Assembly (NCBI GenBank): GCA_964642015.1 | Contig: CAZXLF010000004.1 | Location: 115,001 to 179,000, forward strand | Source of the DNA: an uncultured Planctomycetia bacterium | GTDB lineage: Bacteria; Omnitrophota; Gorgyraeia; 2-02-FULL-51-18 | Length of the DNA: 64,000 nt | Reading direction: 5' to 3' | Shown here: piece after piece, positions 19,811-56,278 of the stretch | Position numbering within the stretch: position 1 is the first letter of the stretch | Layout: each line of letters opens with the position of its first letter | The notes under the pieces: generated by a model | Told to the model about the DNA's origin: nothing | What the model saw: only the letters and a program-made list of their open reading frames with translations | Database searches by the model: none | Position numbers and translations under genes: made by a program

Positions 19811-19838
19811 ATCATCTGTGACATATGTCACAGATGAT
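19811..19838. promoter_or_regulatory. perfect 28-bp palindrome containing a consensus CRP-type site TGTGA-N6-TCACA
   Basis: ATCATCTGTGACATATGTCACAGATGAT. Core TGTGA at 19817-19821 and TCACA at 19828-19832. Centred ~70 nt upstream of the Cys-rich gene start, in the dps to Cys-rich intergenic region. Confidence 0.55.
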
Positions 19839-19907
19839 CTAAAATAATTGGTTAATTCTTTATTTTATAAGTCCTTTATTTTAAGTAGTTTACAGAATCA
19901 ATACCAT

Positions 19908-20381
19908 CTATTCTAATGTGGCCCTTAACATCCACGCCATTTTTTCATGTTTCTCCATTAAGCCCGTCAAAAAATCACTTGTACCTGCGTCGCCATATTT
20001 TTCGTTACAGGTCACAAGGTCCTCACGTAGGATATTGATGATCTCCTCATGGTCTTCAAGCAGCTTTAAAACCATCGCCTTTGAACTCGGATAATCCTTC
20101 GGAAATTCTTTGAGTCTCGCACACTTCAAGAACTCACCCATTGTTCCGATCGATCTTCCCCCTAACGCTCTTACTCTCTCGGCTGTATCATCGATAATAT
20201 CATTGAGCTCTTCGTACTGCGACTCAAAGAATTTATGAAGATCATGGAAATTGGGTCCGACGACATTCCAGTGGTAATTCCGCGTCTTGGCGTACAATAC
20301 ATACTCATCCGCCAAAAGCTGGTTCAGAATGTCGGCGGACCCTTCACGTTTCTTATCGGGAATTCCTATATCAGTTCTCAT
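19908..20381 (-). CDS. dps: Dps (DNA protection during starvation) ferritin-like protein
   Basis: 157 aa. LLADEYVLYAKTRNYHWNVVGPNFHDLHKFFESQYEEL is the Dps ferroxidase-site region. Confidence 0.85.
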   Translation of the reverse strand: MRTDIGIPDKKREGSADILNQLLADEYVLYAKTRNYHWNVVGPNFHDLHKFFESQYEELNDIIDDTAERVRALGGRSIGTMGEFLKCARLKEFPKDYPSSKAMVLKLLEDHEEIINILREDLVTCNEKYGDAGTSDFLTGLMEKHEKMAWMLRATLE

Positions 20382-20409
20382 TACCGCTCCTTTCTTAAAG
20401 CAGTTTTGA

Positions 20410-20868
20410 CTATTGGATCTGGATCTTCACTTCTCTCGGCTTGGCGGTCGCATCCTTCGGAAGATGGATCTCCACGACACCATCCTTGTAAGATGCCTTG
20501 ACGTCGGTCGCTCTCACCTTCGACGGTAGCTCCACTGCCCTGGAGAAAGTACCGTGAAATCTCTCGGCGTAGTAATAATCTTTGCCCTTTTTCTCCTGTT
20601 CTTCTTTTCTTTCGCCTTTGACGGTGAGAATATCATCCTGCACACTGATATTCAATTCGTCTTTTTTAATGCCCGGTATATCAGCGCGGACAATAACTTC
20701 ATCTTTTTCATCCTTCACGTCAATATCGGGAGCAAAAAAAGTCTCTTCGCCTTTTAACAAGTGTGATGATCTCAACGGCCTTTCCATTAACCTGTCCATC
20801 TCTTCCTGTAAATTCCTCAGCGTTCCAAACGGTTCCCACAAATCCCCTCTCCTGATCAAATGATTCAT
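20410..20868 (-). CDS. Hsp20/alpha-crystallin small heat-shock protein
   Basis: 152 aa. Alpha-crystallin domain (…FAPDIDVKDEKDEVIVRADIPGIKKDELNISVQDDILTVKGER…GTFSRAVELP). Confidence 0.85.
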   Translation of the reverse strand: MNHLIRRGDLWEPFGTLRNLQEEMDRLMERPLRSSHLLKGEETFFAPDIDVKDEKDEVIVRADIPGIKKDELNISVQDDILTVKGERKEEQEKKGKDYYYAERFHGTFSRAVELPSKVRATDVKASYKDGVVEIHLPKDATAKPREVKIQIQ

Positions 20869-20936
20869 GGCCTGGCCCTCCTTTTAGTTCTTAACTCTGA
20901 TCCGTAATTATTTTATCAAGCAATACGTCGCTGAAA

Positions 20937-20952
20937 CTGTGACAAGCGTCAC
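20937..20952. promoter_or_regulatory. CRP-type half-palindromic site TGTGA-N6-TCACT upstream of hsp20
   Basis: TGTGACAAGCGTCACT, centred ~76 nt upstream of the Hsp20 start. Same spacing as the site at 19811-19838. Confidence 0.4.
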
Positions 20953-20967
20953 TAAAAAACGAATTTT

Positions 20968-21432
20968 TTAGGACTTGGCTTCGAGAGAGATTATTTTGTA
21001 GAAAAGAGCTGCCTCAAGGATCATCAGGACTCCGCTGGCAAAGATCAATAAGAGTCCGAATAAAAAGATCGAGACTGTAAAATGAAGTGGCTGAAAAGAA
21101 GAATATATATTAGAGAATATCAATATCGAGGTCATTGTAAAACACAGGATGGCTCCGTAAGTAAGCACGATCGCATTTTTTACATAAGTGGCGCGCCGCA
21201 TGAGATTACTGACTTGGACAATCAGACTCGATAATCGTGCCTGTTCTGCCGGATCTTTCGAGTTCTTTTGTGACAATAAACGTTTTTCATGATTTAAAGA
21301 CCGGAAGCGGCTGGCAAGGTTCGAGAATTTGTTCTGAAAACCTAATAATAACAGCGCCGAGCTTGAAACCATCACCGCCGGCGAAAGCACATATTGGATC
21401 TCCTGGGCAATTTTTGTAATATCCATCGGCAA
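20968..21432 (-). CDS. small membrane protein (DUF2721-like)
   Basis: 154 aa. Two to three TM helices flanking a charged loop. Weak family call. Confidence 0.35.
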   Translation of the reverse strand: MPMDITKIAQEIQYVLSPAVMVSSSALLLLGFQNKFSNLASRFRSLNHEKRLLSQKNSKDPAEQARLSSLIVQVSNLMRRATYVKNAIVLTYGAILCFTMTSILIFSNIYSSFQPLHFTVSIFLFGLLLIFASGVLMILEAALFYKIISLEAKS

Positions 21433-21443
21433 TCATCTCCTCA

Positions 21444-22547
21444 TTAACTTAAGCGTTTGTGGAATTTACGGATGCTCACGGTCAGGATCAATACAGCCAT
21501 CGCCGTCAACGGCACGATTTGAGGCCAAAGATCGTTCAGACCCAAACCTTTTAAGATGATCCCGCGCGCGATGACGAGAAAATAAGTCAACGGGATCAGA
21601 TGTGTAATCTGGAAAATAAAAAATGGCATCGCTTCTCTCGGAAAAATAAAACCTGACAATAAGATCGACGGCGCAGCGAAAAACATGATGATCTGTGAAG
21701 CCTGTTGTTGATTTTCAGCGATCGTCGACGCAAAAAGCCCGAGGCCCAGGCATACCGTAATAAATAAGATAGTTAACCCAAATAGAGTAATGGGATTACC
21801 TCTCACCGGTACACGAAATAAAAAATGCGCTGCGCCGACGACCATGAGCGCTATAAAGATCCCGATAAAAACGTATGGGATCAGTTTTCCAAAGATCAGC
21901 TGGTAAGGTTTTATCGGCGTTACCAAAAGCTGCTCAATGTTGCCTCTTTCCTTTTCTCTGACGATAGCCGTTGCTGTGATCATAGGCACCAATAACTGCA
22001 ATAATAGCCCCACAAGGCCTGGTATCATGAAAAACGAGCTTTTAAGATCAGGGTTATACCAAAGCCGCGGCCTGTAGTCGATCGGCAGCACCTGAGCGGG
22101 GACCAGACGTTCCCGTTGAACAAACGACAGCACGATAGATTGTCCAGTGTTCATCGCAGTATTTGCAGGATTAGAATCCGTCCCATCGATCAGCAATTGA
22201 ATGGAGGCGCCGCGCGAAGCCATTAAATTTTTTGTAAAATCAGGCGGAATATGTATGCCAACCTTAGCTTTGCCTCGATCCAATAGTTTCCGCATTTCAG
22301 TCGGTGAAGCCGTATGATATTTCATATCGAAATAAGCGGATTGTTCAAACGCCGACACAAGACGCCGGCTGAGCGGAGTCTGGTCTTCATCATAAAGCAC
22401 GGTCGAAATATGCTTCACATCCGTGTTAATCGCATAACCATAGATCGAAAGCTGGATCAACGGCATCATGACGATCAGGATCAGCGTCCGTTTATCACGC
22501 AAAATATGGAGTATTTCTTTTTGAATGATCGCTTTAATTGTTTGCAA
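21444..22547 (-). CDS. ABC-2 type exporter permease
   Basis: 367 aa. N-terminal TM helix, large periplasmic loop, then 5 C-terminal TM helices. Overlaps the ATPase gene. Confidence 0.65.
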   Translation of the reverse strand: MQTIKAIIQKEILHILRDKRTLILIVMMPLIQLSIYGYAINTDVKHISTVLYDEDQTPLSRRLVSAFEQSAYFDMKYHTASPTEMRKLLDRGKAKVGIHIPPDFTKNLMASRGASIQLLIDGTDSNPANTAMNTGQSIVLSFVQRERLVPAQVLPIDYRPRLWYNPDLKSSFFMIPGLVGLLLQLLVPMITATAIVREKERGNIEQLLVTPIKPYQLIFGKLIPYVFIGIFIALMVVGAAHFLFRVPVRGNPITLFGLTILFITVCLGLGLFASTIAENQQQASQIIMFFAAPSILLSGFIFPREAMPFFIFQITHLIPLTYFLVIARGIILKGLGLNDLWPQIVPLTAMAVLILTVSIRKFHKRLS

Positions 22548-23475
22548 CGTTTGCTCCTTCCCCTTGCAAAGTAGCGAACACGTCTTCCAGCGATGCGGAT
22601 ATCGGTTTTATGGAAGTTACCGTAATGCTTTCGTTTTTCGCGATCTGCTTGAGCCTTTCATCGATCGAAACGTCGCTTTTAACATTTAAATGAAGAGTGG
22701 TCCCATAGGCTGTAATACCAATGACTCCCTGGATATTTTGAAAAGCACTTGACGCTTTCATCAGCGGCCTGCATTCTACTTCGAGCACTTTTTCGTGCAC
22801 CTGGGCTTTTAATTCATTCGGCTGGCCGATGCGCAGGATCCTGCCTTGGGCCATGATCACAATATTGTTGCACCGTTCTGCTTCTTCCATATAGTGCGTT
22901 GTGACAAAAAGCGCGATCCCTTCGTCCGCTAATTTATACAACAGCTCCCATAATGCCCGGCGCGATAACGGATCGATCCCGGCAGTCGGTTCATCCAAAA
23001 AAAGGATGCGCGGTTTATGAAGGATCGCGTTGGCGACCGCGAGGCGTTGCTTCCATCCTCCCGAAAGATTGCCGGCCATTTGAGTTTTGTACTGGTCCAG
23101 TCCGGTTAATTTCATGACCTCTTCAATACGGTCTTTTAAAGCAGTCGAATAAAGTCCGTACACACGGCCGTAAAACTCCAGGTTTTCTTTGACTGATAGA
23201 TCAGAATAGAGACTGAATTTTTGGGAAACGTATCCTATCGCTTGTTTGATCTTTTCGGGATCTTTATTCACATCAAAACCGGCAACGGTAGCGGTACCGC
23301 CTGTAGGTGCCAAGATCCCGCAAAGCATGCGGATCGTGGTGCTCTTTCCGGCTCCGTTGGCTCCAAGATAACCAAAGATCTCTCCATAGTGGATTGAAAA
23401 ACTGACTTTATCTACCGCCACGAGAGCACCGAATTTGCGCGTGAGATCTTTTACTTCTATCGCAATATCGTTCAT
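22534..23475 (-). CDS. ABC transporter ATP-binding protein
   Basis: Walker A GANGAGKST. Signature LSGGWKQRL. Walker B LFLDEPTAGID. Confidence 0.85.
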   Translation of the reverse strand: MNDIAIEVKDLTRKFGALVAVDKVSFSIHYGEIFGYLGANGAGKSTTIRMLCGILAPTGGTATVAGFDVNKDPEKIKQAIGYVSQKFSLYSDLSVKENLEFYGRVYGLYSTALKDRIEEVMKLTGLDQYKTQMAGNLSGGWKQRLAVANAILHKPRILFLDEPTAGIDPLSRRALWELLYKLADEGIALFVTTHYMEEAERCNNIVIMAQGRILRIGQPNELKAQVHEKVLEVECRPLMKASSAFQNIQGVIGITAYGTTLHLNVKSDVSIDERLKQIAKNESITVTSIKPISASLEDVFATLQGEGANVANN

Positions 23476-24167
23476 GGCTTCTCCCTAAGATCTAGCTGCA
23501 CATCCGCATTTACACCGGGGCGAAGATAATCCGCAAGTTCATCCAAAGTGATCTTGACAGCAAAGGTTTGCGTGATACGCTCTTCCTGCGTCTGAACATT
23601 CCGCGGCGTGAACTCCGCCCTCGGCGCTATGAAACTGACATGTGCTTTAAAACTCTTTTTGATGCCATCAACTTTAAGCGTCGCGAGCTGATCGAGGCGG
23701 ACGCGATTGATCAATCCTTCAGGTATGTAGATCTTGACCCAAAGCTTGGACCTGTCCCCGATATCAACGACAGTCGAGCCGGCAGACAAGACTTCACCTT
23801 CTTCTCGCACTTTGAGAAGCACAACTCCATCCACAGGAGAAATGATTTCCTGATCTTCTAGGGCAAGCTCGGCTTGTTCGAGAGCTTGTTTGGACGCGCC
23901 GCCATCATTAAAGATCTGTGACATTCTGTCGTAATCTTTTTTTGCCTGATCATAGCGGTCAAGCACAGCGATAAGCTCGCCTTTTTTGACGATCTGCCCT
24001 TCATCGACCATTAATTTCGAGAGCCGTCCGGCTACCCGCGCGCCGACAGAATGCTCCGTAAGCTCCAGAGTCCCTGAAAGGTCCAAATGATGGCTCTTCC
24101 ATAGGTCCACACCAATAGAAAAAAGGATAAATATTAAAATACCGAAAAGAAATACCTTCTTTTTCAT
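23472..24167 (-). CDS. HlyD-family periplasmic adaptor (membrane fusion protein)
   Basis: 231 aa. N-terminal anchor. Coiled-coil and beta-barrel pattern. Sits between the TolC-like and ABC genes. Confidence 0.7.
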   Translation of the reverse strand: MKKKVFLFGILIFILFSIGVDLWKSHHLDLSGTLELTEHSVGARVAGRLSKLMVDEGQIVKKGELIAVLDRYDQAKKDYDRMSQIFNDGGASKQALEQAELALEDQEIISPVDGVVLLKVREEGEVLSAGSTVVDIGDRSKLWVKIYIPEGLINRVRLDQLATLKVDGIKKSFKAHVSFIAPRAEFTPRNVQTQEERITQTFAVKITLDELADYLRPGVNADVQLDLREKP

Positions 24168-25498
24168 TTTTTCTCCAAGCTTTCCGATAATTTTTCCATC
24201 TGGCCAAGCGAATGCACAAAATAGACCTGCGCGGTCTGATACATTGCGAGCGTTTCCTCGCGCTCATCAGCAGCCTGCGCTTCTTGGACCATAGCAACGA
24301 TCAGATCCATTTGGCTTGCGCTGCCGTTTTCAAACCGATGCGTTAAAAGATCCAGCTGTTGTTTGTAAGCGGCAAGGTTATCTTCTTTGGCCTTCATCAT
24401 TTTCCGCGCGTCCTTAAGGGACTCTTTGGCGTCAAGAGCCGATATTTGTTTTTGATTGGAAGTGTCATCAAGGTTCACTTGAGCTTCGCGGGACTTGCTT
24501 TGGCTTTCAGCGACACGCGCATTTCTCTCTCCGCCATCGAATAGATCCCATGACGCTTCAAGTCCGTAGGAATAAGTCGCTTCAGATCGGCTGGGTTGAT
24601 CAGCGCTGGCACCGTAATCGGCCTTGCCGCTCAACTTGGGCAGATATTCCGCTTTCTCCGAAGCTTCAAGCGCTTTGGTTTCACGCAATTTTTGTTCGGC
24701 AAGTTCTACTTCCGGATGTCTACCTGACGATCTTAAGATCTCGTCCCGTGTGGGGAAAATAGACCTTAAAGACACCGCTTCGCCGGGAAAAGATAAGTTT
24801 TGATTTTCAGGCAGACCCAAAGCGGCTTTTAGATCCAATTGACTGCGGAGCAGTTTAGATTTTGAAGCATGCCACCGAGAACGCGCGTCAGAAAGTTCAG
24901 TCCTCGCGTTCTTCAGGTCCAGATCGGAACCGGTCCCTAATTTCAAATAAGTCTCGGCCAAGCGGAATTTTTCTCTGGAAAGCCACAGCACCACCTTCGA
25001 AAATTGAAATTCGCTTTCAGCCCTTCTCGCTTCGATATAAAAAGAAGCGGTCATCGCCAAAATATCCTCTTTCACTTTTCTTGCTTCGGCGGTGGAAACA
25101 TCCTGCGCGATCCCGGCTGCTTCAAGCCGTTTGATCACTGACGGATCAAAAAGGACCTGGGTAAGCTTCACTCTGGCGTCAAACACGTTGAAAGGCCCCG
25201 TGACCGATGGAGCACCAACGGCAGTCTTGAAACCAAAAGTCTCCAGATTCTCAGTCTTCCGTGTCTCAGATAAAGTAGTTGAGACTTGAGGAAACATGGT
25301 GGAACGTGTTTGATTCAAGCGTTCAACGGCCTGTTTCACTCTCTCGTTGGCCATGATAACCGCCGGACTTTTTTGGCCGGCCATTCTAAGCGCATCCTGG
25401 AAACTCAAAGGCAAAACGGGCTGAACCGCGTCCGCCATCGTAAGTGACGGCAGAAAAAAACATGCCAAAAATAATATAATGATTTTCCGAGCGGCCAT
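24164..25498 (-). CDS. TolC-family outer-membrane efflux protein
   Basis: 444 aa. Signal peptide. Two-fold repeated coiled-coil/beta architecture. Operon context with the HlyD and ABC genes. Confidence 0.7.
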   Translation of the reverse strand: MAARKIIILFLACFFLPSLTMADAVQPVLPLSFQDALRMAGQKSPAVIMANERVKQAVERLNQTRSTMFPQVSTTLSETRKTENLETFGFKTAVGAPSVTGPFNVFDARVKLTQVLFDPSVIKRLEAAGIAQDVSTAEARKVKEDILAMTASFYIEARRAESEFQFSKVVLWLSREKFRLAETYLKLGTGSDLDLKNARTELSDARSRWHASKSKLLRSQLDLKAALGLPENQNLSFPGEAVSLRSIFPTRDEILRSSGRHPEVELAEQKLRETKALEASEKAEYLPKLSGKADYGASADQPSRSEATYSYGLEASWDLFDGGERNARVAESQSKSREAQVNLDDTSNQKQISALDAKESLKDARKMMKAKEDNLAAYKQQLDLLTHRFENGSASQMDLIVAMVQEAQAADEREETLAMYQTAQVYFVHSLGQMEKLSESLEKK

Positions 25499-25502
25499 AT
25501 GT

Positions 25503-25949
25503 TTATAACGAGCTTTTAAGGTTTTCTTTGAGCTTGTTTATCACTCCGTAAAATGCTTTCAGTTCATGGGGCTCAAGCGAGCGCAGCACTTCTTCCCATC
25601 GCCGGCGCATGACCATCTGGAATTCCAGGATGAATTTGCGCCCTTTGGGAGTGAGTTCCAACCAAACTGAGCGCCTGTCAGATGGCTCACTGAAACGCCT
25701 GACATAACCAACAGACGCCAACCGGTCCGCAAATCCTGTCGCCGTCGGCATTTTGATCCTCATTGCCCTCGACAACTCGCTCATGCGGCAGCGGCCAACA
25801 GCGTGGATCGCCACGACCATAATGAACTGCGCCTGCGTGATCGGTCTTCCCGCAAAAAAATCAAGCTGCACGCCTCGAATAATATTCGGCATGAGCTCAG
25901 CTATCGAAAGGCTGACATCCGTTACGCGTAGAGAACTAATTTTGTTCAT
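25503..25949 (-). CDS. MarR-family transcriptional regulator
   Basis: 148 aa. Winged HTH (…CRMSELSRAMRIKMPTATGFADRLASVGYVRR…). Confidence 0.7.
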   Translation of the reverse strand: MNKISSLRVTDVSLSIAELMPNIIRGVQLDFFAGRPITQAQFIMVVAIHAVGRCRMSELSRAMRIKMPTATGFADRLASVGYVRRFSEPSDRRSVWLELTPKGRKFILEFQMVMRRRWEEVLRSLEPHELKAFYGVINKLKENLKSSL

Positions 25950-26034
25950 ATAGGCTAAATATTAGCATAAATGAATAAAATGTCAATAGATGATTTTTGG
26001 AATTTTATAAGCTATTAAAAAGCGTGGTGAGCGG

Positions 26035-26424
26035 TTAAGCCCGCTCGAGGAAATCGGTGATCATTTGACGGAGTTTGTCCATCAGCGGAAAAGGTTTTTC
26101 AAGAAATTCGACATGTCCCAATGACAACGCCTCATTGCGCTTCTCCTCATTGGCATAACCAGTCATGAACATGATCGGAAGGTTCGGATAAACAGCGCGG
26201 ATCGCTCTGGCGAATGCTACGCCGTCGCCACTGGGCATCACGATATCGGTGATCAACAGATCATAGCGAACTGAGCCCATGATGATCGCATTCAGCGCTT
26301 CCGCTGAGTTCTGAAAAAAATCGGTATTCAGTTTCATCTGCTTCATCATCGAGGAAAAAACTTTTAGAATCACTTTGTCATCATCTACAACGGCGATCTT
26401 CAACTTTGTCAGGTCTATAGCCAT
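26035..26424 (-). CDS. single-domain response regulator (receiver only)
   Basis: 129 aa. DD…D phospho-acceptor pattern (VVDDDKVI…LLITDIVMP…K). Confidence 0.75.
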   Translation of the reverse strand: MAIDLTKLKIAVVDDDKVILKVFSSMMKQMKLNTDFFQNSAEALNAIIMGSVRYDLLITDIVMPSGDGVAFARAIRAVYPNLPIMFMTGYANEEKRNEALSLGHVEFLEKPFPLMDKLRQMITDFLERA

Positions 26425-26462
26425 ATCATGATCTCCTTAAGTAATTTATTGGGCATCCCATG

Positions 26463-28483: not shown

Positions 28484-28556
28484 GAAAGCCTTGGCTAAAA
28501 TTATATATAAATATATAATAATTATACATCTTTATATATTTCTGTCAAAAAATAAC

Positions 28557-31242: not shown

Positions 31243-31243
31243 A

Positions 31244-45102: not shown

Positions 45103-45987
45103 TCAAAGTCTATTCATCGAGCCTTTGGTTCTAAAATCCCTAGCGATCGCATAAAATGGATAAAAAAGCTGGCGTAATGGCATGATAAATAAATCCAAAA
45201 AACTTGTCTTCCTCTCCAAAGGAAATTGACCGTCTTTAATCCCTGTATCCGGATATTCATTAATAATATCAGACTGCGTATTAAAGATCCTGTCCCAAAA
45301 TGAGAACATGATGCCAAAATTTTTTTCCTGAAATTGACGTTCAAAAGAATGGTGAAGTCTATGCGACTGAGGGGTGACAAAGATATGACGTAAAAAACCC
45401 AAGTTTGATTTAATGTTGGAATGATAAAAACGGACTTGCCATGTTGAAAAGATCCCAAAAGCAATGATATTAGGCATATCGACCGCCAAAATCATCATCG
45501 GAATCAAAACAATGGGTCGTGAAACGATATATTCAATAAAATGAAAACGCTCATTAGTGAACATGTTGAGCTGACGTTGCGAATGGTGGACTGCATGAAA
45601 CTGCCAGAGCCAAGGGACCTTATGCATAAGCCAATGTTTGAACCATTGCAAAAGGTCGGATAAAACCACGCCTATCATGAAGGACACAATTTGAGGCAGA
45701 TGACCTTTCCATGGCACTGTCAAAAAACTAAAATATTTATTATAAAGAAATGTGAAAGCTTTCACATACACGGCCACCACTGTACTTACAAACAGCAGGG
45801 CCATTAGCAACCAGACGCTATCATGAAGAAATCCGATGCTCAATGTTTCCTGTTTGGGGTCGACGGGGAATAAGCGCTCTAAAATCAGGATGATCGTCAC
45901 AGCAATAATAAAAATAGGGCTGTAAACAGTCTCTTGAAGTACAGACGTGATCCCATGAATTAAAAATAGATATAATCGATTATACAT
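45103..45987 (-). CDS. sterol-desaturase / fatty-acid-hydroxylase superfamily membrane enzyme (copy 2, tandem paralog)
   Basis: ~60% identical to copy 1 over the full length, with the same histidine boxes (HWLMH, HAVHHS, HRLHHS). Confidence 0.75.
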   Translation of the reverse strand: MYNRLYLFLIHGITSVLQETVYSPIFIIAVTIILILERLFPVDPKQETLSIGFLHDSVWLLMALLFVSTVVAVYVKAFTFLYNKYFSFLTVPWKGHLPQIVSFMIGVVLSDLLQWFKHWLMHKVPWLWQFHAVHHSQRQLNMFTNERFHFIEYIVSRPIVLIPMMILAVDMPNIIAFGIFSTWQVRFYHSNIKSNLGFLRHIFVTPQSHRLHHSFERQFQEKNFGIMFSFWDRIFNTQSDIINEYPDTGIKDGQFPLERKTSFLDLFIMPLRQLFYPFYAIARDFRTKGSMNRL

Positions 45988-46063: not shown

Positions 46064-47146
46064 TTACAAGATGGGGATGTCCCTTGAGGAAGGATTGTGT
46101 CCGGATCTAACACCTATATTATCGGCTTTATCGCCGTGTGAATCATAGATCTTTCTGGATTCGCTTGATCCCCTGAAGAAGGCATCAACAACATCGGGAT
46201 CAAAATGCTCACCCTTGCCTTGCTCGATAATTCCCATGGACCTTTCCCACGAATAAGCCGTTTTGTAAGGCCGGTTGGAAGTCAAGGCATCAAAAACATC
46301 GACTACCGCAACGATCCTGCCGGCGATCGGTATTTCTTTCCCTTTCCTTCCGAAAGGATATCCTGAACCATTCCATTTTTCATGATGAGATAAGGCGATT
46401 TCGCACCCCATTTTGATCATGCGGGACGTCCCCTTTTGCAAAATGCTAGCACCGATCAAGGTGTGGGTTTTCATGATCGCAAATTCCCCGTTTGTGAGTT
46501 TACCCGGTTTAAGCAATATGCTGTCGGGAATACCGATCTTACCTATATCGTGGACCGGACCGGCTTCTTCAATAGTTTCCATGAATCTTGTGCCAAATCC
46601 CAAGTATCCGGCTATCAAACGACTGTACTGCCCCACACGAACGATATGACGTCCCGTCTGATCATCCCGATATTCGGAAGCCATCAAAAGCCGGTGAACC
46701 ATTTCGTGGTTGGCTTCCGCTAATTTTTGAAATGTATGCCTAAGTCGGCGGGCACGGTACTCCGCGCGATGTTTGGCGGATTTTTGAAATTCTCTGAGTT
46801 TTAATAAATTTCTAACACGGAGCAAAAGTTCTTCGGGCACCAGCGGCTGTGAAACAAACTCATCCACCCCGCTTTCGATCCCTCCAACGACGGATCTTCT
46901 ATCTCCAAAGCCGGTGAGAAAAATTATTGGAACATCCTTTAACCTTTTGACACCTTTTGCCGTTTCAAAACCGATAAGCTTAGACATGATCACATCCATC
47001 AGCACAAGATCAACATCCTTATACTTTACCGCCGAAAGCGTTTCTTCACCATCTGTCGCGGTCAAAACTTCGTAACCTTGCGCATGGAACAGTGATTCCA
47101 GGAAATGTAAGTTGTGGATGTTATCGTCGGCCAATAAAAGTCTCAA
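46064..47146 (-). CDS. response regulator with HD-GYP c-di-GMP phosphodiesterase domain
   Basis: Receiver domain (MRLLLADDN…LVLMDVIM). HD motif HDIGKIGIP. HHEKWNGSGYP (GYP motif). Confidence 0.85.
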   Translation of the reverse strand: MRLLLADDNIHNLHFLESLFHAQGYEVLTATDGEETLSAVKYKDVDLVLMDVIMSKLIGFETAKGVKRLKDVPIIFLTGFGDRRSVVGGIESGVDEFVSQPLVPEELLLRVRNLLKLREFQKSAKHRAEYRARRLRHTFQKLAEANHEMVHRLLMASEYRDDQTGRHIVRVGQYSRLIAGYLGFGTRFMETIEEAGPVHDIGKIGIPDSILLKPGKLTNGEFAIMKTHTLIGASILQKGTSRMIKMGCEIALSHHEKWNGSGYPFGRKGKEIPIAGRIVAVVDVFDALTSNRPYKTAYSWERSMGIIEQGKGEHFDPDVVDAFFRGSSESRKIYDSHGDKADNIGVRSGHNPSSRDIPIL

Positions 47147-47387: not shown

Positions 47388-48185
47388 TTAAGGCATCGCG
47401 AAAAACGTGTCCTTGCCGGATCTTTTCGCCTGAAACATATTTTGGTCGATCTTCTCAATAAATTGCGCTGCATCTAAGGTGCTCGCGTCTTCAAAAGAAA
47501 AAAGGCCAATGCTCACCGTAAGCGAAATATAATCTCTAGCCGTCTTAAAACGGTGCTGCCTCACGTTCTGCAAAATCCTTTTGGAAACAACTTCTGACGA
47601 TTTTAGATCTGCCTCCGGAAGAATAGCAATGAACTCATCTCCTCCATATCGGCCTATAATATCGATCTTACGGATGCTTTGCCTCAAAACAAGCGCCATT
47701 TCCCTTAAAATATAATTACCGACGGGATGGCCATAAAGTTCATTGATATTTTTAAATCCATCGACATCCACCATCATGCCTGACAAAACATGATTGTATC
47801 TTTTGGATCTCTCGACTTCTTTTTCTATTTCTTCCATCAGATGCCGATGGTTGTAGATCCCCGTCACGTCGTCCATCATGGACTGAGATTCTAAAACGTG
47901 CATCATGCTTTCCAAGGATTTATTCTGCGCGCGGATTTTATCGTTCAAATTTCCCAGATAAGCACCGAAAACACCGAAGACGAACGGCGTAAGAAGCATC
48001 ATGTAAGAATAAAAAAAGAGATGCCGGTGAACATCCTGGCTGATCCAAATGTAGTCGATCCGGCCGGCCAGGACCGATCTAAACAAAATACTGCCAGCCG
48101 GAGCTCCAAGGCCCAATATCGCGCCCGTCAACATTCCAAATTGTTTGAAATTCTTATCCGGAGATAACATCAAAGGCTCGGCCAA
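47388..48185 (-). CDS. membrane-anchored diguanylate cyclase (GGDEF)
   Basis: Two N-terminal TM helices. RYGGDEF active-site motif. Confidence 0.8.
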   Translation of the reverse strand: MAEPLMLSPDKNFKQFGMLTGAILGLGAPAGSILFRSVLAGRIDYIWISQDVHRHLFFYSYMMLLTPFVFGVFGAYLGNLNDKIRAQNKSLESMMHVLESQSMMDDVTGIYNHRHLMEEIEKEVERSKRYNHVLSGMMVDVDGFKNINELYGHPVGNYILREMALVLRQSIRKIDIIGRYGGDEFIAILPEADLKSSEVVSKRILQNVRQHRFKTARDYISLTVSIGLFSFEDASTLDAAQFIEKIDQNMFQAKRSGKDTFFAMP

Positions 48186-48209
48186 TTTAAGGGTTTATTT
48201 TTACCGACA

Positions 48210-48962
48210 TCAATAGACTTTTGCAGGTATTGACGCATAGGATTGAAGTTGATCGGCAATATGTTGCAATTTATCTTTACCGACAGGCAAGATACCCTGC
48301 TCTTGAGTGGTACGATCAACCGTATAAATTTGCACTTTTATGGGACGGATAAAGGATATGGCCTCGATCCAATTTTTTATATCGCGTTCGCTAATATTTT
48401 TAATATTACCAGTAACGAACATACTTTGTATAGTCGTATCTTGCAAGTCACGCAGACCGACAAGCATGCTGTCCCAATCAAGTTTCGCGATCGGGCGGTT
48501 AATATATTGACATAGGTAACGGTTGCCTGCATCCAATTTCATAAAGCGTCCATCCAGCTTCGAAAGTGCGATGTGGATCTCTTTTTTCTGGCATGTCGAG
48601 GAATTGGAAAGAATGCCGAGCGGCTTGTTTGGAAAAAAGAGGTTCCGCAATGTCGTCAAACCATCTACGATTTCCGGAAATTGAGGATGAAGCGTCGGTT
48701 CTCCGTTGCCGGACAGCATAAGCCAATCTATTTCTGTGCCCATATCTCTGATCCTCTCAAAATCCGATGAAAGCTGAGCGTAAATATCACCAAAACCGGG
48801 GAAATGCTCGTTACCGATACCGGCTGTGTACTGACAATAAATGCAATCAAATGAGCAGGTCCGCCGATCTATAGGCAAGATATTGATGCCGAGAGATTTA
48901 CCAAATCGCCTTGAGTCCACAGGACCGTAAACCATACGAGATTGAAGTTGTACCGTCTTCAT
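48210..48962 (-). CDS. radical SAM protein (COG0731-like)
   Basis: N-terminal YGPVDSRRFGKSLGINILP followed by the CxxxCxxC cluster CSFDCIYCQ. Confidence 0.7.
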   Translation of the reverse strand: MKTVQLQSRMVYGPVDSRRFGKSLGINILPIDRRTCSFDCIYCQYTAGIGNEHFPGFGDIYAQLSSDFERIRDMGTEIDWLMLSGNGEPTLHPQFPEIVDGLTTLRNLFFPNKPLGILSNSSTCQKKEIHIALSKLDGRFMKLDAGNRYLCQYINRPIAKLDWDSMLVGLRDLQDTTIQSMFVTGNIKNISERDIKNWIEAISFIRPIKVQIYTVDRTTQEQGILPVGKDKLQHIADQLQSYASIPAKVY

Positions 48963-49465
48963 TTGCTAGCCTTTTTGACGCACTCGATTAGCTGTTTTTT
49001 TTCATCGGGGCGCAATTCATCCTCAGCGATCCGGTAAAGAACTTGGGTCTCCACTTGCATATGGCCCCTAAGAAAGCAAATAAGATAGGTGAACTGTTCG
49101 TTGATCTTGTAGATCAGAAATGCCCTGTCCGCGGCAGGTTTTTGAGCTTTCGACAAAGAGGATTTTAATTTGTTCATGCTGTCCCTGAAATCGCTATGTT
49201 CGGAATTCAAAAGGCCGATCATCGGCTTTAGCTTCGGAATATGCCGTGCTAAGAAAGGGAACAATATCTTCTCCTCTTCTATCATGTGGCTTTCAAAATC
49301 TTTTTTAAAATTCGACACGAACTCTTGAGCATGTTTCAAATTCTTACTCAGATTTTGTTTGCCTTCAAAGCGGAGTTTTTCAAGAACGCTGTAGAATTGA
49401 TTCAGATCACGCGCGGTTTGCCTATGATCCCGTTCGAACATCTCAGAAAGGCTTCTAGTTGACAT
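48959..49465 (-). CDS. hemerythrin-like (HHE cation-binding) domain protein
   Basis: Spaced H/HxxxE motifs (ERDHRQ; HMIEEE; SEHSDF; HMQVE). Confidence 0.5.
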   Translation of the reverse strand: MSTRSLSEMFERDHRQTARDLNQFYSVLEKLRFEGKQNLSKNLKHAQEFVSNFKKDFESHMIEEEKILFPFLARHIPKLKPMIGLLNSEHSDFRDSMNKLKSSLSKAQKPAADRAFLIYKINEQFTYLICFLRGHMQVETQVLYRIAEDELRPDEKKQLIECVKKASK

Positions 49466-49557
49466 AGTTTACACCCCTTCTTTCTGAAATAAATTAAACT
49501 ATATAACGCCATAATAATCTGTGATGTCCGTCACTGATATTGGAAAACCATAAAAAT

Positions 49558-51219: not shown

Positions 51220-51290
51220 ATCGTTAGTGTATCACCATAAAAAATCGTATGACCATATATCCGGTTTCTGGGTAATTTTCACAAAGCCCT

Positions 51291-52775
51291 TTATGCGCCG
51301 CTATGACAATCCGAGCAGTTTGTCTCATTCCACCCTTCGATTTCTACAGGATGTTTAAAATCAAGTCCATTTATATTTTTTTCTATGGATCCCTTTGGTC
51401 CTTGCTCTATGATCAGATGGCATGCTTTGCAGTCTTTTGTGATCGTTGCTCCTTGAACAGTTTTATGTTCTCCATCGTGGCATCGAAAACATCCCGGTGT
51501 GTAAAGATGCCCGATATTTTCAGGATGCGTGTCCCACCGAACTTTCATTTCGGGGAACATGTTATTTTGGAACATCACTTTGACGGCTTCCGCCGCTTTT
51601 TCTATCGCATCTTTGTGAGCCGCATAAAAATCCGGCATTTTTTCTTTATAATAATTTTCTAATGAGTTCTTTATCGTGTCAAGCGCTTCATCAGTCGATT
51701 TATATTCCTTCGAAAGAACCTCCATGCCTTTTTCCCTGATCTTCGGGATCAACGCATCAATATCCCCTCTTTGCATCGCCTCATCCATCAAGCGGTAAGG
51801 AGGTTCAAAGCGGTGTGTCGGACGATTATGGCAGTCAATACAATCCATTTTCCTTACCAATGACGCTGGGGGCTCAGTGTCTTTATACTTGGAGCTCGAA
51901 GTTGTATATATTGTCTCTTTTCCGTCTTTATCTACTGTTTTTATCCAGCTTATCTTCTGTCTTTTTTCATCATCGGCTACATAGTAGAGGTCTTGATCGA
52001 TATTCATATGAGCGTGGACACCGCGGGTCTGTCCGTGACCTGCGCCCACATTCATCAGCATGCGCAGATGCCATTCCGAGTTTTTATTGTCAGATAAAAA
52101 ATATGTGCGGTTAAAGTCCATCGTACTGAAAAGTTTTCCGGGCCAGTGGCATTGTTTGCACGTTTCTTCGGCAGGCCGCAGATCCTTAACCGGAGTTTGT
52201 ACCGGTTTTTTATAAGTATTGGACAAATATTTGATCACCTGACGCGCGCCGGAGATCTTAGAATGCACATACCAGTCCGCTCCGGCACCGATATGGCATT
52301 CGACGCATTTAACGCGGCCATGCGGTGAATTTTTATAAGTTGTGAATTCCGGTGTCATAACCCCATGACATAAGACACCGCAAAACTGGACGGATTCCGT
52401 ATAGTGGAAGGCTTTATAAGCGCCGATCACTGACATCAATATTAAAAGTGAAGTGCCTGTAATAAAAACAAGTAGCATGTTTCGATGCTGCGAAATAGAA
52501 AGATCGATACGGAACCTTTGGAGCTCTATGACCGGAAGGCCCTTTGCGATACGGTTCTTCTTCCAGAAATAGCCGATAGGGATCAACAAAAGCCCCAAAA
52601 TCAAGAACGCCGGCAGGATCAGGTAAGTGATCAGTCCTAGATATAAATTCTTGCCATGATCAAAGAAATCCAGCGCAAAAAGGAAAACTTCTATCGAAGC
52701 GACGGTAATGCTGATCATCACGCCGAGGTAGGTGATCACATTGTAAAACAAAGATGAGAATTTTTTGTCGCTCAA
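51291..52775 (-). CDS. membrane-anchored multiheme c-type cytochrome (7 haem motifs; NapC/NirT-related, ImcH/CymA-like)
   Basis: 2-3 N-terminal TM helices, then an atypical CGVLCH (CX3CH) and six CxxCH motifs (CVECH, CKQCH, CIDCH, CFRCH, CKACH, CSDCH). 494 aa. Confidence 0.7.
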   Translation of the reverse strand: MSDKKFSSLFYNVITYLGVMISITVASIEVFLFALDFFDHGKNLYLGLITYLILPAFLILGLLLIPIGYFWKKNRIAKGLPVIELQRFRIDLSISQHRNMLLVFITGTSLLILMSVIGAYKAFHYTESVQFCGVLCHGVMTPEFTTYKNSPHGRVKCVECHIGAGADWYVHSKISGARQVIKYLSNTYKKPVQTPVKDLRPAEETCKQCHWPGKLFSTMDFNRTYFLSDNKNSEWHLRMLMNVGAGHGQTRGVHAHMNIDQDLYYVADDEKRQKISWIKTVDKDGKETIYTTSSSKYKDTEPPASLVRKMDCIDCHNRPTHRFEPPYRLMDEAMQRGDIDALIPKIREKGMEVLSKEYKSTDEALDTIKNSLENYYKEKMPDFYAAHKDAIEKAAEAVKVMFQNNMFPEMKVRWDTHPENIGHLYTPGCFRCHDGEHKTVQGATITKDCKACHLIIEQGPKGSIEKNINGLDFKHPVEIEGWNETNCSDCHSGA

Positions 52776-52868
52776 TGCGTTATCCTTCTTTGATCACAAA
52801 TAAAAAAGCGCCGGATATCCGATCCAACGCTTTTTCATCAAGTGTTTCGGCCTTTAAACCGGCAACGA

Positions 52869-53147
52869 TCATCCGGCCGCCGGGGCTTTCCCTGCCGCTT
52901 TGTATGTTTCGGTATCGGGTGTTTCTTTTATCTTTCTGACTTTTTGCCCGTATTCATTCCAGTCATGCTTACCATCATCTTTCTTTGGAATTTTGTCAAC
53001 ATGGCAAGCGGTGCATTTGGGTTTTTCTTCATCGGGAAACGCCGCCTTGTAGATCTTGGCCTGTTCAAGATTGGCTAACGCAATTCCCGTTGAGCAGAAA
53101 CCCACGATGACCAGTGCAATGGTCTTTGTTAATTTTTTCATACGCAT
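52869..53147 (-). CDS. periplasmic monohaem cytochrome c (MtoD-like by position)
   Basis: 92 aa. Signal peptide. Single CTACH. Confidence 0.65.
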   Translation of the reverse strand: MRMKKLTKTIALVIVGFCSTGIALANLEQAKIYKAAFPDEEKPKCTACHVDKIPKKDDGKHDWNEYGQKVRKIKETPDTETYKAAGKAPAAG

Positions 53148-53181
53148 ATTTCTCCAAGTTAGTTATATGCCACAAATACCG

Positions 53182-55293
53182 TCAGCCCCAATTGATCTTT
53201 GCTTCAAGCCAAAACGTATGGGCGTTGTAACTGCCTATTTCAGCCTCATTGGCGCTGTACTGATACCATGAATATTTCGGCTCGAGCGACAGATCTTTGT
53301 TCAGCTTCCAGGAACAGCCTAACGTTAGATCCACCTGATGAAAATCAGCGCCATAGGGCATTCCAATGATACTAAAATCTTGAAAGTTAGCCGCGCGAAT
53401 ATAATCCGCAGTGCCGGTCAGGATAATATCCTTTGTCAAAGCATACTCGGCACTGAACAGCGTGGTATAAGAGTCGAAATTAAATGTCGGGATAGCTGAC
53501 GCCAGACCCGTGGAACGATCAGGAGTAATGATCTTTCCGTCTTGAAAAGAAAATGATGCCGTCAGCAAAAGATCGTCCACCGGCTGGCTTGATAAATCCC
53601 AAGTATATATATTTGAAATAAGTGCCGTACCTACACTCACATCGTCATTGGGCAGACCCCACGCGGTGTACCGCTTATCCTGGAGCTGATAGCGAAAAGT
53701 TGGCTGAAACCAGCGGACAGGTTTCCAGCTGACGCGAGTTTCAAATTCATCCGTCGCCGTGGACTGTTTATCAATAAATGTAAGCGAAGTATCGCCACCG
53801 TTATTGAATAGATGATTGTAATGAATATCATCCAGTTTATGACGGACTTGAGCCGTTAATGTAACGTGATTCAATGGAAAAATCTGCGCGCCAAGCGTGC
53901 CGGAACCCCTGTACATATGGTCAAGTTCCTGGCGGTTTAAAGTGGTAGCTGCACTGGCACTTGTCAGGTTCATATAAAGGTCGTCCCTGACTTGTTGAAA
54001 ATCATAATCGTTATAAATGGAAACATGCGGAATCCCGCCATAGCGAAACGATACGCTTTCACCATAGCTCATCCTCTTGTCCTGGTTGTTGGCCACATCG
54101 ATCTGATCAATGGATCCGTCCGGCACCGCAGGAGAAATATCCTGAGGCGTTGTAGATTCGCTTCGGCGGTTGATAGCTTCGACCTTAAACCTTGTAATGG
54201 CCGTTATCGGGTTAAGCAATGTCGTCATGAAACTCATCACGCCTGTTTGCGATATGTAATGATTATCCGCAAACGCATTCACCCACTGCTTTGGATTGGC
54301 AAAATTATGGAGCACTCCATTGCCTGTCAACTCATTCAAATTATCCAATTCATGGCTATCGACCTGCGAAAAACGATAGTCGCCGGACACATAGATTTTC
54401 TCTTTCCAAAACCACCGGTTCACACCCAAGAGTGTGGTAAGCAAATCCGTGCGCGGAGACTGATACAGGTCGCGGATCTTGGCATTCGCGTCAGGTGAGC
54501 CGGACACCACTGTATCAAGTTGTTTTTCTTCGCGCATATCATTAGCACGCGTAAATTCCCATCTTTGCTCCGCATTCCAATTAAAACCGGCGACCGTGTC
54601 ATCCAGCTTAGCGCCAAATGAATCAGTTATTTCGTCGATCTGCTGCCACGAGGGAGCGATCTTTCTAACCGTCGATGCGCCAACCCCCGGCGCATTATCG
54701 GTTACACTCGCCCACGATAAGCGCGACTTTGTACCCTCCTTAAAATCACGCTCATAGTCTAACGTGATATCAGGCATATTTTTGATTGAAAGCCCTGCCT
54801 CGACGCCGAACTTTCCAATATTAAGCGCCAATTCTTTATCTGTGTAATTTTGCGCAAGATTAACAAAAGGCCGATATAATCCGCCTGCGTTGCTGTAATA
54901 TTTACGAAACTCGCTATAATCAAAATTAAGATATGCGATGTCATCCTTTTTAAAATGGGCCGATCCGCTGTAATCTCCGTCTTCGGGTATGACATGGCCT
55001 TCTGATTCCAGCGATACATCATTTGAAAATTCCTTATTCAGCTTAAAATCTTTTACACCAAACGCAAAACCGTCATCCATCCAGTGAAGTGCACGGAACT
55101 TGCTCGAATCCCCATCGATAAAAGTGTATCGAGCAGGATCGGCCGTAAGAGAAAAATCTATAGGGTCGGTCTTCGTCTCGGCCGAGTCGCCGGCTAGCAA
55201 AGAATTGGACAATGATAACATCAACAAAAAACCGGACGACACTGCGATAAAATTTTTATAATCCATTTTGCGCATGAATAGCTCCTTAATCAA
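53182..55293 (-). CDS. large outer-membrane beta-barrel protein (MtrB/MtoB/PioB-like porin candidate)
   Basis: 703 aa. Signal peptide. Alternating hydrophobic/polar beta-strand pattern throughout, rich in Tyr/Asn/Asp/Gly. Overlaps the upstream cytochrome gene by 4 nt. Confidence 0.55.
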   Translation of the reverse strand: MIKELFMRKMDYKNFIAVSSGFLLMLSLSNSLLAGDSAETKTDPIDFSLTADPARYTFIDGDSSKFRALHWMDDGFAFGVKDFKLNKEFSNDVSLESEGHVIPEDGDYSGSAHFKKDDIAYLNFDYSEFRKYYSNAGGLYRPFVNLAQNYTDKELALNIGKFGVEAGLSIKNMPDITLDYERDFKEGTKSRLSWASVTDNAPGVGASTVRKIAPSWQQIDEITDSFGAKLDDTVAGFNWNAEQRWEFTRANDMREEKQLDTVVSGSPDANAKIRDLYQSPRTDLLTTLLGVNRWFWKEKIYVSGDYRFSQVDSHELDNLNELTGNGVLHNFANPKQWVNAFADNHYISQTGVMSFMTTLLNPITAITRFKVEAINRRSESTTPQDISPAVPDGSIDQIDVANNQDKRMSYGESVSFRYGGIPHVSIYNDYDFQQVRDDLYMNLTSASAATTLNRQELDHMYRGSGTLGAQIFPLNHVTLTAQVRHKLDDIHYNHLFNNGGDTSLTFIDKQSTATDEFETRVSWKPVRWFQPTFRYQLQDKRYTAWGLPNDDVSVGTALISNIYTWDLSSQPVDDLLLTASFSFQDGKIITPDRSTGLASAIPTFNFDSYTTLFSAEYALTKDIILTGTADYIRAANFQDFSIIGMPYGADFHQVDLTLGCSWKLNKDLSLEPKYSWYQYSANEAEIGSYNAHTFWLEAKINWG

Positions 55294-56114
55294 TATCGGA
55301 GTTTATCGCTAAAATTTGAACCATGCACCGCCGTATGGCATCCTGCGCTCCAACAGGTGCCTTCACTCCATTGGCCTGTCGCGGCGCCTCCGCCGTGATT
55401 ATGCGCGCCGATGATCGGGACATTCAGTTCAGTGTGGCAACGCAAACAAAGGTTATGATCGCGTGCGATCAGCATCTTTTCATGGATCGAGCCATGGACT
55501 TTATGGCAAGTCTGGCATCCTTCGCGCAACGCTTCATGTTCCCACGCAAACGGGCCCCGCTTGTCCTTATGGCACTTGAAACAGGCTTCATTGACATCGC
55601 GCATCGTCGTCGCAGACCAAGGTCTGACTTCTTCTCCATGCGGGGAATGGCAATCTGCGCAACTCATTTTGCCTTCAAGCACCGGATGATGATACGGCAA
55701 ACGGAATTCCATTTTTTTATCGGTATGACAAGCAAAACAAGCGGAAGGATCCTTCTTCGGATTGATAATATTTCCTCGCCCGCCGCCCGCATCGACGTGA
55801 ATGCTCGCCGGGCCGTGGCACATTTCACAATCTTTCACGTCGCCATCTTTGACGCTGATCCGGGCATGCGTAGACAAACGAAATTCCTTCTCTTCTTTCT
55901 CGTGGCACGACGCGCAGGTATCCGAACCGACATATTTAGCCCCTTTAAAAGCCAAAAGTTTTGCTAACGAGCCCTCATTGTTATCCACATTGACAACATT
56001 TTTATCCTCTGCCTGAACTGCGCCGGAAACAAAAAATAGAATGATAACTAAGGCAAAAAATTTGGCCGGCTTTTTAATGCGAAAAAAATTTGAAAAATCC
56101 TTTTGTTTTATCAT
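55290..56114 (-). CDS. periplasmic multihaem c-type cytochrome (7 CxxCH plus 1 possible CX4CH; MtrA/MtoA/OmaB-like)
   Basis: 274 aa. Signal peptide. CASCH, CEMCH, CFACH, CADCH, CFKCH, CQTCH, CLRCH and a terminal CWSAGCH. Very high haem density, about one per 34 aa. Confidence 0.8.
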   Translation of the reverse strand: MIKQKDFSNFFRIKKPAKFFALVIILFFVSGAVQAEDKNVVNVDNNEGSLAKLLAFKGAKYVGSDTCASCHEKEEKEFRLSTHARISVKDGDVKDCEMCHGPASIHVDAGGGRGNIINPKKDPSACFACHTDKKMEFRLPYHHPVLEGKMSCADCHSPHGEEVRPWSATTMRDVNEACFKCHKDKRGPFAWEHEALREGCQTCHKVHGSIHEKMLIARDHNLCLRCHTELNVPIIGAHNHGGGAATGQWSEGTCWSAGCHTAVHGSNFSDKLRY

Positions 56115-56230
56115 CGCCGACGCAACTATTCTAAATTTCCGATTTAAGTATCAATATTAAAAGTTATAAAAATATAATTAATTTTGACTTATATTAACAT
56201 ATTTTTGATTTATAGTTCAACCTAAACTGC

Positions 56231-56278
56231 TTTTAGACTAGCAAATAGTCTAAGAGCAGTCTGTGACAAATGTCACTT
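56231..56278. promoter_or_regulatory. 8-bp inverted repeat (TTAGACTA-N5-TAGTCTAA) next to a CRP-type site TGTGA-N6-TCACT in the cytochrome/ccsBA divergent region
   Basis: TTTTAGACTAGCAAATAGTCTAAGAGCAGTCTGTGACAAATGTCACTTAA. The CRP-like core is at 56263-56278. Confidence 0.4.

Follow-up and report, generated by a model that had tools for sequence, protein, structure and literature searches.

We analysed a stretch of 64,000 nucleotides (the window) from an uncultured Planctomycetia bacterium that GTDB places in the Omnitrophota (contig CAZXLF010000004.1, positions 115,001 to 179,000), following up a prediction, made from the letters alone, that a resident Crp/Fnr regulator connects stress genes to a cytochrome cluster through sites of the CRP type. 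We put at roughly three in four the probability that the four intergenic sites starting at 19817, 20938, 49520 and 56262 serve as operators for the Crp/Fnr-family regulator whose gene spans 16396-17073, and that this protein is a class II activator of a respiration and stress regulon. The observations behind this reading are a motif, its enrichment in intergenic DNA, its linkage to the regulator gene, its spacing to the -10 hexamer, conserved targets, the residues of the recognition helix and a signature of cysteines. The regulon thus seems real and well supported. Its kind is familiar, its sensor apparently a new variant, and its host phylum uncultured.

The motif TGTGA-N6-TCAC is found seven times over both strands of the window, at five loci, when dinucleotide shuffling leads one to expect 0.38 +/- 0.63 matches; none of 100 shuffles reached seven. 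Six sites lie within one mismatch of the 16-mer, four of them in the non-coding 7.2% of the window. Site 1 has its core TGTGACATATGTCACA at 19817-19832, within a perfect 28-bp palindrome (19811-19838), just as first described. Its centre was said to lie some 70 nt upstream of a gene for a Cys-rich protein; the distance is indeed 69.5 nt to the GTG at 19755, and 78.5 nt to the ATG at 19746, to which the better ribosome-binding site belongs. Site 2 (TGTGACAAGCGTCACT) occupies 20938-20953 rather than 20937-20952, and its centre is 77.5 nt from the start codon of hsp20, close to the 76 nt initially given. Site 4 (TGTGACAAATGTCACT) was likewise correctly recognised and misplaced by one position, since it spans 56262-56277 and not 56263-56278; its centre is 155.5 nt from the start of a cytochrome gene on one side and 172.5 nt from that of ccsB on the other. 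All three sites of the original prediction are thus present, and two more had escaped it. Site 3 (TGTGATGTCCGTCACT, 49520-49535) is intergenic, 62.5 nt upstream of the start of a hemerythrin gene that appears to be the core target of the regulon. The other is a perfect TGTGA-N6-TCACA palindrome, TGTGAAAGCTTTCACA, at 45751-45766, inside an open reading frame for a fatty-acid hydroxylase.

A matrix of 18 nt, trained solely on 57 sites from other genomes and then run over the window, ranks the four intergenic sites first, at 22.2-25.3 bits. Site 4 scores 25.3 bits (56260-56277, minus strand), site 1 25.1 bits (19815-19834, either strand), site 3 22.2-23.6 bits (49518-49537, either strand) and site 2 22.6 bits (20936-20953, minus strand). 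All four share the orientation of minus-strand genes. The next locus, at 15694-15711 with 15.0 bits, was rejected as an operator: the GTG start codon of an ABC ATPase overlaps it, and no room is left for a promoter. The coding consensus at 45751-45766 was also set aside: it carries A6, T11 and T17, scores only 7.7 bits, and is probably there by chance.

The same motif surrounds the orthologous regulator genes of other Omnitrophota. We assembled 68 loci (909 kb, +/-10 kb around each gene; individual loci are labelled with an L below) from GTDB species representatives. Up to one mismatch, TGTGA-N6-TCACA has 97 sites in these loci, of which 65 fall in the 9.5% of non-coding DNA; genes were called there crudely, as longest open reading frames, which makes the intergenic count a lower bound. 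Matrix matches are distributed in the same way (68 of 86 in the non-coding share), and a site occurs within 350 nt downstream of the regulator gene, mostly at 2-90 nt, in 49 of the 61 cases with enough downstream sequence, although both counts reuse the sites on which the matrix was trained, which tells against taking them at full weight. Together with the intergenic position of the four best window sites, these numbers answer a concern that came with the original prediction, namely that the motif might be as common in coding regions as in promoters. A homologue of the window's hemerythrin gene (48959-49465) follows the regulator in 44 of the 61 loci, and a site and a hemerythrin gene do so together in 38. 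This linkage across the phylum is the main evidence that the resident protein would be the one that binds the sites, and it suggests that the hemerythrin gene with its upstream site is the conserved core of the regulon. Regulator and site have been separated in the window, yet the hemerythrin gene has kept its site.

Promoter geometry points to activation. When the 57 sites outside the window are oriented by the nearest downstream gene, the motif becomes asymmetric, w-G-T-G-A-C/t-N4-G/a-T-C-A-C-A, with G at position 17 in 50 of them, followed by A or C. A TAnnnT hexamer begins exactly 21 nt past the 16-mer in 38 sites and at 22 nt in seven more, when the background at other offsets is 0-4 sites. 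Positions 2-5 and 12-15 are invariant through the way sites were selected; C6, G11, G17 and the spacing to the -10 hexamer were not selected. Class II promoters of CRP and FNR have their site centred at -41.5, with the -10 hexamer occupying -12 to -7. The distance that we find between the centre of the site and the first base of the hexamer, 29.5 nt, equals theirs, and we therefore read the protein as an activator that replaces the contact with the -35 element. No -35-like hexamer is present 17 nt from the -10 hexamer at the 57 oriented sites. The half-site GTGACA was considered for this role and discarded, since its distance to the -10 hexamer, 30 nt for the distal copy and 21 nt for the proximal one, is in neither case a sigma-70 spacing.

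Comparable arrangements are seen in the window, always on the minus strand. Read toward hsp20, site 2 is AGTGACGCTTGTCACA followed by G, with TAAAAT (20915-20910) at offset 22. Site 3, read toward the hemerythrin gene, is AGTGACGGACATCACA followed by G, with TTTAAT (49498-49493) at offset 21; site 4 is AGTGACATTTGTCACA followed by GA, with TAGTCT (56240-56235) at offset 21; and site 1 has two -10-like hexamers, TATATT (19796-19791) and TATTAT (19794-19789), at offsets 20 and 22. With its centre 29.5-30.5 nt from a TAnnnT hexamer, a site would lie about 41.5 bp upstream of the predicted start of transcription, where the -35 element should be, and the bound protein would act by class II activation, in direct contact with RNA polymerase.

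Site 4 lies between two divergent transcription units and had been placed in their promoter region. It scores 25.3 bits on the minus strand and 15.7 bits on the plus strand, where no -10-like hexamer is found at offsets 20-22. On both grounds we rejected it as a driver of ccsBA: its predicted role is with the cytochrome operon (55290-56114 and downstream). The inverted repeat next to it, initially described as a separate one of 8 bp, actually has arms of 15 nt (56226-56240 and 56246-56260, 93% complementary, ACTGCTTTTAGACTA-N5-TAGTCTAAGAGCAGT). This repeat contains the predicted -10 hexamer TAGTCT and also a second hexamer, TAGACT.

Several points weigh against our reading and should be taken together. 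The spacing to the -10 hexamer in the window ranges over 20-22 nt instead of being constant at 21, and the hexamer of site 3, though at offset 21, lacks the A at position 2. Site 4 stands 155 nt before the start codon, so that a 5' untranslated region of about 114 nt is implied; a sigma-70-like arrangement (GTGACA-18-TAGACT) overlaps it, and the 15-nt repeat beside it may serve a second factor as operator or else be an alternative promoter. The regulator gene of the window adjoins no site, so that its assignment relies on other genomes, and a second paralogue with the same helix may be encoded outside the 64 kb. Finally, we infer from sequence every functional step: that the protein binds, that it activates and does not repress, what its cofactor and signal are, and the sign of the response.

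The choice between activation and repression deserves particular care, since some promoters are repressed by CRP/FNR proteins. A regulator binding these sites could occlude the -35 region instead of replacing it: the site does cover the would-be -35 region, and at site 4 the distal half-site GTGACA forms with TAGACT a sigma-70-like promoter that would be blocked upon binding. Yet the rigid 21-nt spacing in 38 of 57 sites is a signature of activator-polymerase geometry, there is no -35-like hexamer 17 nt from the -10 hexamer, and the promoter-proximal G17, present in 50 of 57, is an asymmetry that may reflect a constraint tied to the polymerase. Repression is in our view an unlikely account of these promoters.

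The regulator has the architecture of the Crp/Fnr superfamily, an N-terminal cyclic nucleotide monophosphate (cNMP)-binding-like beta-barrel followed by a C-terminal helix-turn-helix of the Crp type. Pfam places cNMP_binding and HTH_Crp_2 in it, with bit scores above the cut-offs (PF00027 69.5, PF13545 60.7, PF00325 26.7), and Foldseek returns CRP, FNR, GlxR and DNR folds at a probability of 1.00. The family had been correctly read, but the gene probably starts at the ATG at 17073 instead of 17103, giving a protein of 225 residues (MMPIAV...) that matches its homologues. Those at 60-77% identity all come from metagenome-assembled genomes of Candidatus Omnitrophota. Searches of PDB by sequence and by fold found only generic Crp/Fnr relatives at no more than 25% identity, and no NCBIfam family scored above its cut-off: the CRP equivalog NF008732 gave 59.6 bits against a cut-off of 266 and the Fnr model 70.5 against 228.

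The recognition helix of this protein reads G-V-A-R190-E-T-V-A-R195, the R-E-x-x-x-R arrangement of CRP, and the clade keeps RETxxR without variation. TGTGA half-sites have been tied to Arg and Glu at the equivalents of R180/E181 (PMC1274295). A helix predicting another half-site, such as that of FNR, would have been hard to reconcile with the original prediction; the one found is of the CRP/HcpR1 type, specifying TGTGA. We propose that the regulator binds wGTGAC-N4-GTCACA, presumably as a homodimer, through R190, E191 and R195. One could object that the sites are bound by some other Crp/Fnr paralogue from outside the window, for example a true cyclic AMP (cAMP)-CRP, and that the resident regulator has a different motif. 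Only 64 kb of this genome are in view, no site is adjacent to the regulator gene, and some Omnitrophota genomes hold two paralogues of the Cys4 regulator (L046/L061, L054/L058, L057/L063). This is nevertheless quite improbable, given that 49 of 61 orthologous genes are directly followed by a site, that the RETVAR helix predicts exactly the half-site observed (PMC1274295), and that the regulator is the sole Crp/Fnr-family gene within the window.

The paralogues in these pairs of loci share about 47-54% identity with the window protein, and behind each lie a site and a hemerythrin gene of its own, so their regulons may be sub-functionalised. An autoregulatory site precedes the regulator gene in some genomes (L004, L007, L011), and none was found between 17000 and 17700 in the window at up to two mismatches.

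What the regulator might sense is suggested by its cysteines. Its N-terminus (MMPIAVENVPFFQSL) has none, in agreement with the earlier remark that no N-terminal cysteines of the FNR type were obvious, and the four that it possesses are at positions 45, 79, 81 and 90. An alignment of 23 homologues shows C45, C79, A80, C81, N82, P83, W88 and C90 to be invariant. An exhaustive search of 1.84 billion cluster representatives gave only about 30 clusters at E <=1e-30 and then a plateau of generic Crp/Fnr proteins; all full-length members of the clade, down to about 33% identity, keep C45, C79-[AS]-C81-[NH] and C90 together with RETxxR, while proteins just outside it show the customary F-[AG]-E and lack the Cys trio. 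The 68 loci were retrieved with the peptide pattern GDTCACNP, which makes Cys conservation among them partly a matter of construction and counts against using them here; the alignment and the search of cluster representatives are independent support. HMMER alignment to the CRP of Mycobacterium tuberculosis sets C81 on the cAMP-binding Glu and C90 on the Arg (Glu72 and Arg82 in E. coli), and the cAMP-contact residues of the phosphate-binding cassette of CRP (E. coli Glu72, Arg82, Ser83) are not retained as a set.

Replacement of the Glu and Arg that contact cAMP by invariant cysteines makes it likely that the signal is redox or a metal and not a cyclic nucleotide. The earlier suggestion of a cNMP- or redox-responsive regulon would thus hold in its second half only. 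In the AlphaFold model (predicted local distance difference test, pLDDT, of 79), C45 lies in the beta2-beta3 loop, and C79, C81 and C90 flank the loop 81-90; in cNMP-binding domains the beta2-beta3 loop and the phosphate-binding cassette are neighbours. The loop 81-90, equivalent to this cassette, has a low pLDDT of about 59, which speaks against leaning on its modelled shape. We think that cNMP binding has probably been lost and that a Cys4 centre has taken its place, C81 standing for Glu72 and C90 for Arg82, with C79 and C45 completing a sensor where the cAMP pocket would be. Most likely this would be a Cys4 metal centre responding to O2, NO or oxidants, with an Fe-S cluster, a Zn-thiolate or a disulfide switch as candidates.

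The exact half-sites of E. coli CRP and a Pfam cNMP_binding score of 69.5 bits might nonetheless suggest an ordinary orthologue of CRP, responsive to cAMP or cGMP and in charge of a catabolite-type regulon. We find this hard to credit: all members of the clade have Cys where Glu72 and Arg82 would be, the CRP equivalog of NCBIfam gives 59.6 bits for a cut-off of 266, and the targets concern respiration and stress instead of catabolism. Both the cAMP residues and the equivalog score thus indicate that the regulator is not CRP proper. It does share with E. coli CRP the half-sites TGTGA/TCACA, the helix (R180/E181/R185) and the class II geometry. It differs from CRP in having Cys for Glu72 and Arg82, in an identity to solved CRPs of only about 22-25%, and in a motif that is extended and asymmetric, with C6/G11 preferred and G17 on the promoter side.

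Other known systems share part of these traits. FNR senses O2 by an Fe-S cluster ligated by Cys, and DNR uses haem. FNR, ANR and DNR resemble the Omnitrophota regulator in being class II activators centred at -41.5 and in having regulons with hemA, cytochromes c, nosZ, a di-iron protein like DnrN/YtfE and hemerythrin. They differ in their box, TTGAT-N4-ATCAA read by E-x-x-S-R, whereas that of Omnitrophota is TGTGAC-N4-GTCACA read by R-E-x-x-x-R. The cysteines of the [4Fe-4S] cluster of FNR are N-terminal (C20, C23, C29) plus C122, whereas those of Omnitrophota line the former cNMP pocket. With its Cys-free N-terminus and its other helix and box, the regulator is by all these features not an FNR. 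Still, an FNR/ANR/DNR-like respiration and stress regulon would seem here to be read through CRP-like DNA sites. A hemerythrin regulated by Anr is known in Pseudomonas aeruginosa (10.1101/802934), and the outer-membrane cytochrome/porin conduit (mtr) and anaerobic respiration of Shewanella are under the control of a factor of the CRP type (PMC4417206).

Another parallel in DNA reading is HcpR1, the nitrosative stress regulator of Desulfovibrio, which binds TGTGA-N6-TCACA (PMC5701242). It too has a CRP-like palindrome, an Arg and a Glu as the specificity residues of its helix, predicted regulons that often include hemerythrin-, ferredoxin- or cytochrome c-like genes, and no N-terminal Cys motif of the FNR type (PMC1274295, PMC5701242). 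HcpR has been described without a Cys cluster, or as haem-based in Porphyromonas gingivalis (PMC12750200), whereas the Cys4 of the Omnitrophota clade is invariant. The structure of P. gingivalis HcpR, the only HcpR that we compared, shows 17% identity to the window regulator in Foldseek. Neither hcp nor frdX is among the approximately 40 target families annotated within 10 kb of the regulator genes, where several target clusters have no Pfam match. DdrI of Deinococcus and SdrP of Thermus, cAMP-independent members of the CRP family that are reported to control stress genes, are a lead only; neither is known to have a Cys4 pocket.

One may then ask whether Omnitrophota possess a Crp/Fnr clade not described before, in which the cNMP pocket has turned into a Cys4 Fe-S or metal-thiolate sensor, DNA is read as by CRP, and the protein is a master switch of respiration and stress. 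We regard this as tentative, somewhat short of an even chance. That it is an FNR-like switch for O2, NO or oxidants that arose at a different place in the fold is held with the same reserve, and a command over N2O reductase, a conduit for extracellular electron transfer, haem synthesis, hemerythrin and stress proteins is a possibility that we rate no higher. In the literature that we searched we found neither a Crp/Fnr regulon of Omnitrophota nor a Crp/Fnr clade with a Cys pocket, an absence that is no proof of novelty. Should the Cys4 pocket hold a cluster or metal, it would be a second, independent conversion of the CRP fold into a redox sensor.

Site 1 raises a problem of its own, because its palindrome could simply be the intrinsic terminator of hsp20-dps. 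On minus-strand RNA it forms a stem of 14 bp with a loop of 4 nt (-20.4 kcal/mol, z = -6.8), followed by U7 and located 70 nt past the stop codon of dps. An operator needs only the central 18 nt, and the symmetry of the palindrome extends 5-6 bp further on each side, an excess that is best explained by the hairpin. Were it only a terminator, its resemblance to an operator would be incidental. But a terminator constrains pairing and not the sequence TGTGAC/GTCACA, and site 1 scores in the top tier of the matrix from other genomes (25.1 bits) with C6, G11 and G17, has -10-like hexamers at offsets 20 and 22, and precedes a Cys-rich gene that is also controlled by a site in L013 and L011. A terminator alone is thus an unlikely reading, and the two roles are compatible. 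We favour the reading in which site 1 is probably both the terminator of hsp20-dps and the operator of the next operon, although a scan for consensus terminators did not list this hairpin, which counts against the former role. Sites of other genomes have no general T-tract, and an Rfam scan of the window between 15 and 22 kb returned no match. On the plus strand, antisense into dps, a segment overlapping site 1 (19818-19845) reads GTGACA-16 nt-TAAAAT and matches the sigma-70 consensus at 10 of 12 positions; the likeness is probably fortuitous, because the half-site resembles TTGACA.

Four minus-strand operons would be the targets in the window, and Pfam and NCBIfam uphold the identities first given to the Crp/Fnr regulator, Hsp20, the Dps-like ferritin, rubrerythrin, the multihaem cytochromes and ResB/CcsA. 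Site 2 is predicted to drive hsp20 (20410-20868, Pfam HSP20) and, after a gap of 28 nt, dps (19908-20381, Pfam Ferritin, NCBIfam Dps). Two of four hsp20 orthologues have a site (24.9 bits in L071 and 22.8 bits in L073), with the -10 hexamer at offset 21. A Dps homologue in L044 (74% identity) is near the regulator gene but has no site of at least 15 bits, so that control of dps is supported only through its operon with hsp20.

The operon predicted behind site 1 (17654-19746) has short intergenic gaps and encodes, by Pfam and NCBIfam, a YbaK-like deacylase (18837-19310), DUF488 (18315-18812) and rubrerythrin (17654-18310), all preceded by the Cys-rich protein (19345-19746). The latter has 133 residues, belongs to no Pfam or NCBIfam family, and carries two groups of cysteines, C-x2-C-x8-C-x8-C and C-x2-C-x8-C-x7-C; it looks like a metal- or cluster-binding protein. 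Both homologues that we found are controlled by sites: in L013 the gene has its own, of 19.3 bits and about 60 nt upstream, and in L011 it is the second gene of an operon formed by a site and hemerythrin. YbaK homologues are behind their own sites in L012, L026, L031 and others, and DUF2582 in L010 and L023. In the window DUF2582 (17154-17411) lies downstream of rubrerythrin, and transcription from site 1 may read through into it and possibly into the regulator gene itself.

Behind site 3, the predicted operon 47388-49465 comprises hemerythrin (48959-49465), a radical-SAM protein (48210-48962) and a GGDEF diguanylate cyclase (47388-48185), all identified by Pfam; these families occur behind sites in L007, L020, L024, L027, L030, L036 and L067. 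The hemerythrin is weakly related to YtfE/DnrN. Genes of cyclic di-GMP (c-di-GMP) metabolism are found in or next to this operon, namely the GGDEF gene and one for a response-regulator/HD-GYP-type protein (46064-47146). Hemerythrin is followed by a GGDEF gene in L007, L024 and L027 too, perhaps a sign that the regulon is connected with c-di-GMP signalling.

Site 4 precedes a cluster (51291-56114) of two multihaem cytochromes identified by Pfam (55290-56114 and 51291-52775), between which are a 703-residue putative outer-membrane protein (53182-55293) and a 92-residue protein (52869-53147). The 703-residue protein, initially called a porin, has no Pfam or NCBIfam match; it is kept beside multihaem cytochromes in L049, L057 and L061. 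The order cytochrome, 703-residue protein, 92-residue protein and cytochrome is found again behind a site in L032, L049, L057, L061 and L063, where the cluster usually follows hemerythrin and hemA. That one regulator joins the stress genes to the cytochrome cluster, the central claim of the original prediction, is therefore supported by the enrichment of the motif, the helix, the linkage in 49 of 61 loci and these conserved targets.

Elsewhere in the phylum, sites precede genes for cytochromes c, Rieske/cytochrome b, an Fe-S flavoprotein, SPASM radical-SAM enzymes, HemA, a copper oxidase (L029) and an ADP-forming acyl-CoA synthetase. The same pair of regulator and motif would thus run hemerythrin as a core and, around it, hemA, cytochromes c, Rieske/cytochrome b, Rrf2-nosZ and copper oxidase. 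A CRP/FNR-type activator that works from a palindromic site at -41.5 is in itself a textbook phenomenon. The Omnitrophota are uncultured and their gene regulation is almost unstudied; a regulator-operator pair and a promoter architecture are now available for test. The regulon would join N2O reduction, multihaem-cytochrome/porin conduits, haem synthesis, hemerythrin, c-di-GMP enzymes and proteins of oxidative and heat stress. Its motif offers a means of annotating regulons across hundreds of metagenome-assembled genomes and of interpreting metatranscriptomes. An operator embedded in the stem of a terminator, as proposed for site 1, would also be a compact design.

Two minor observations may be added. 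The motif precedes an Rrf2-family gene that is followed by nosZ (nos_propeller and cupredoxin domains) in L009 (from 12234), L020 (from 12638) and L036 (from 3239), so that N2O reductase would sit under the regulator with a second layer of control of the Rrf2 type. In the window, an open reading frame of 55 codons (MPYRIVKKPHDERPYK...) is found at 17486-17653, right after the stop codon of rubrerythrin and ahead of DUF2582.

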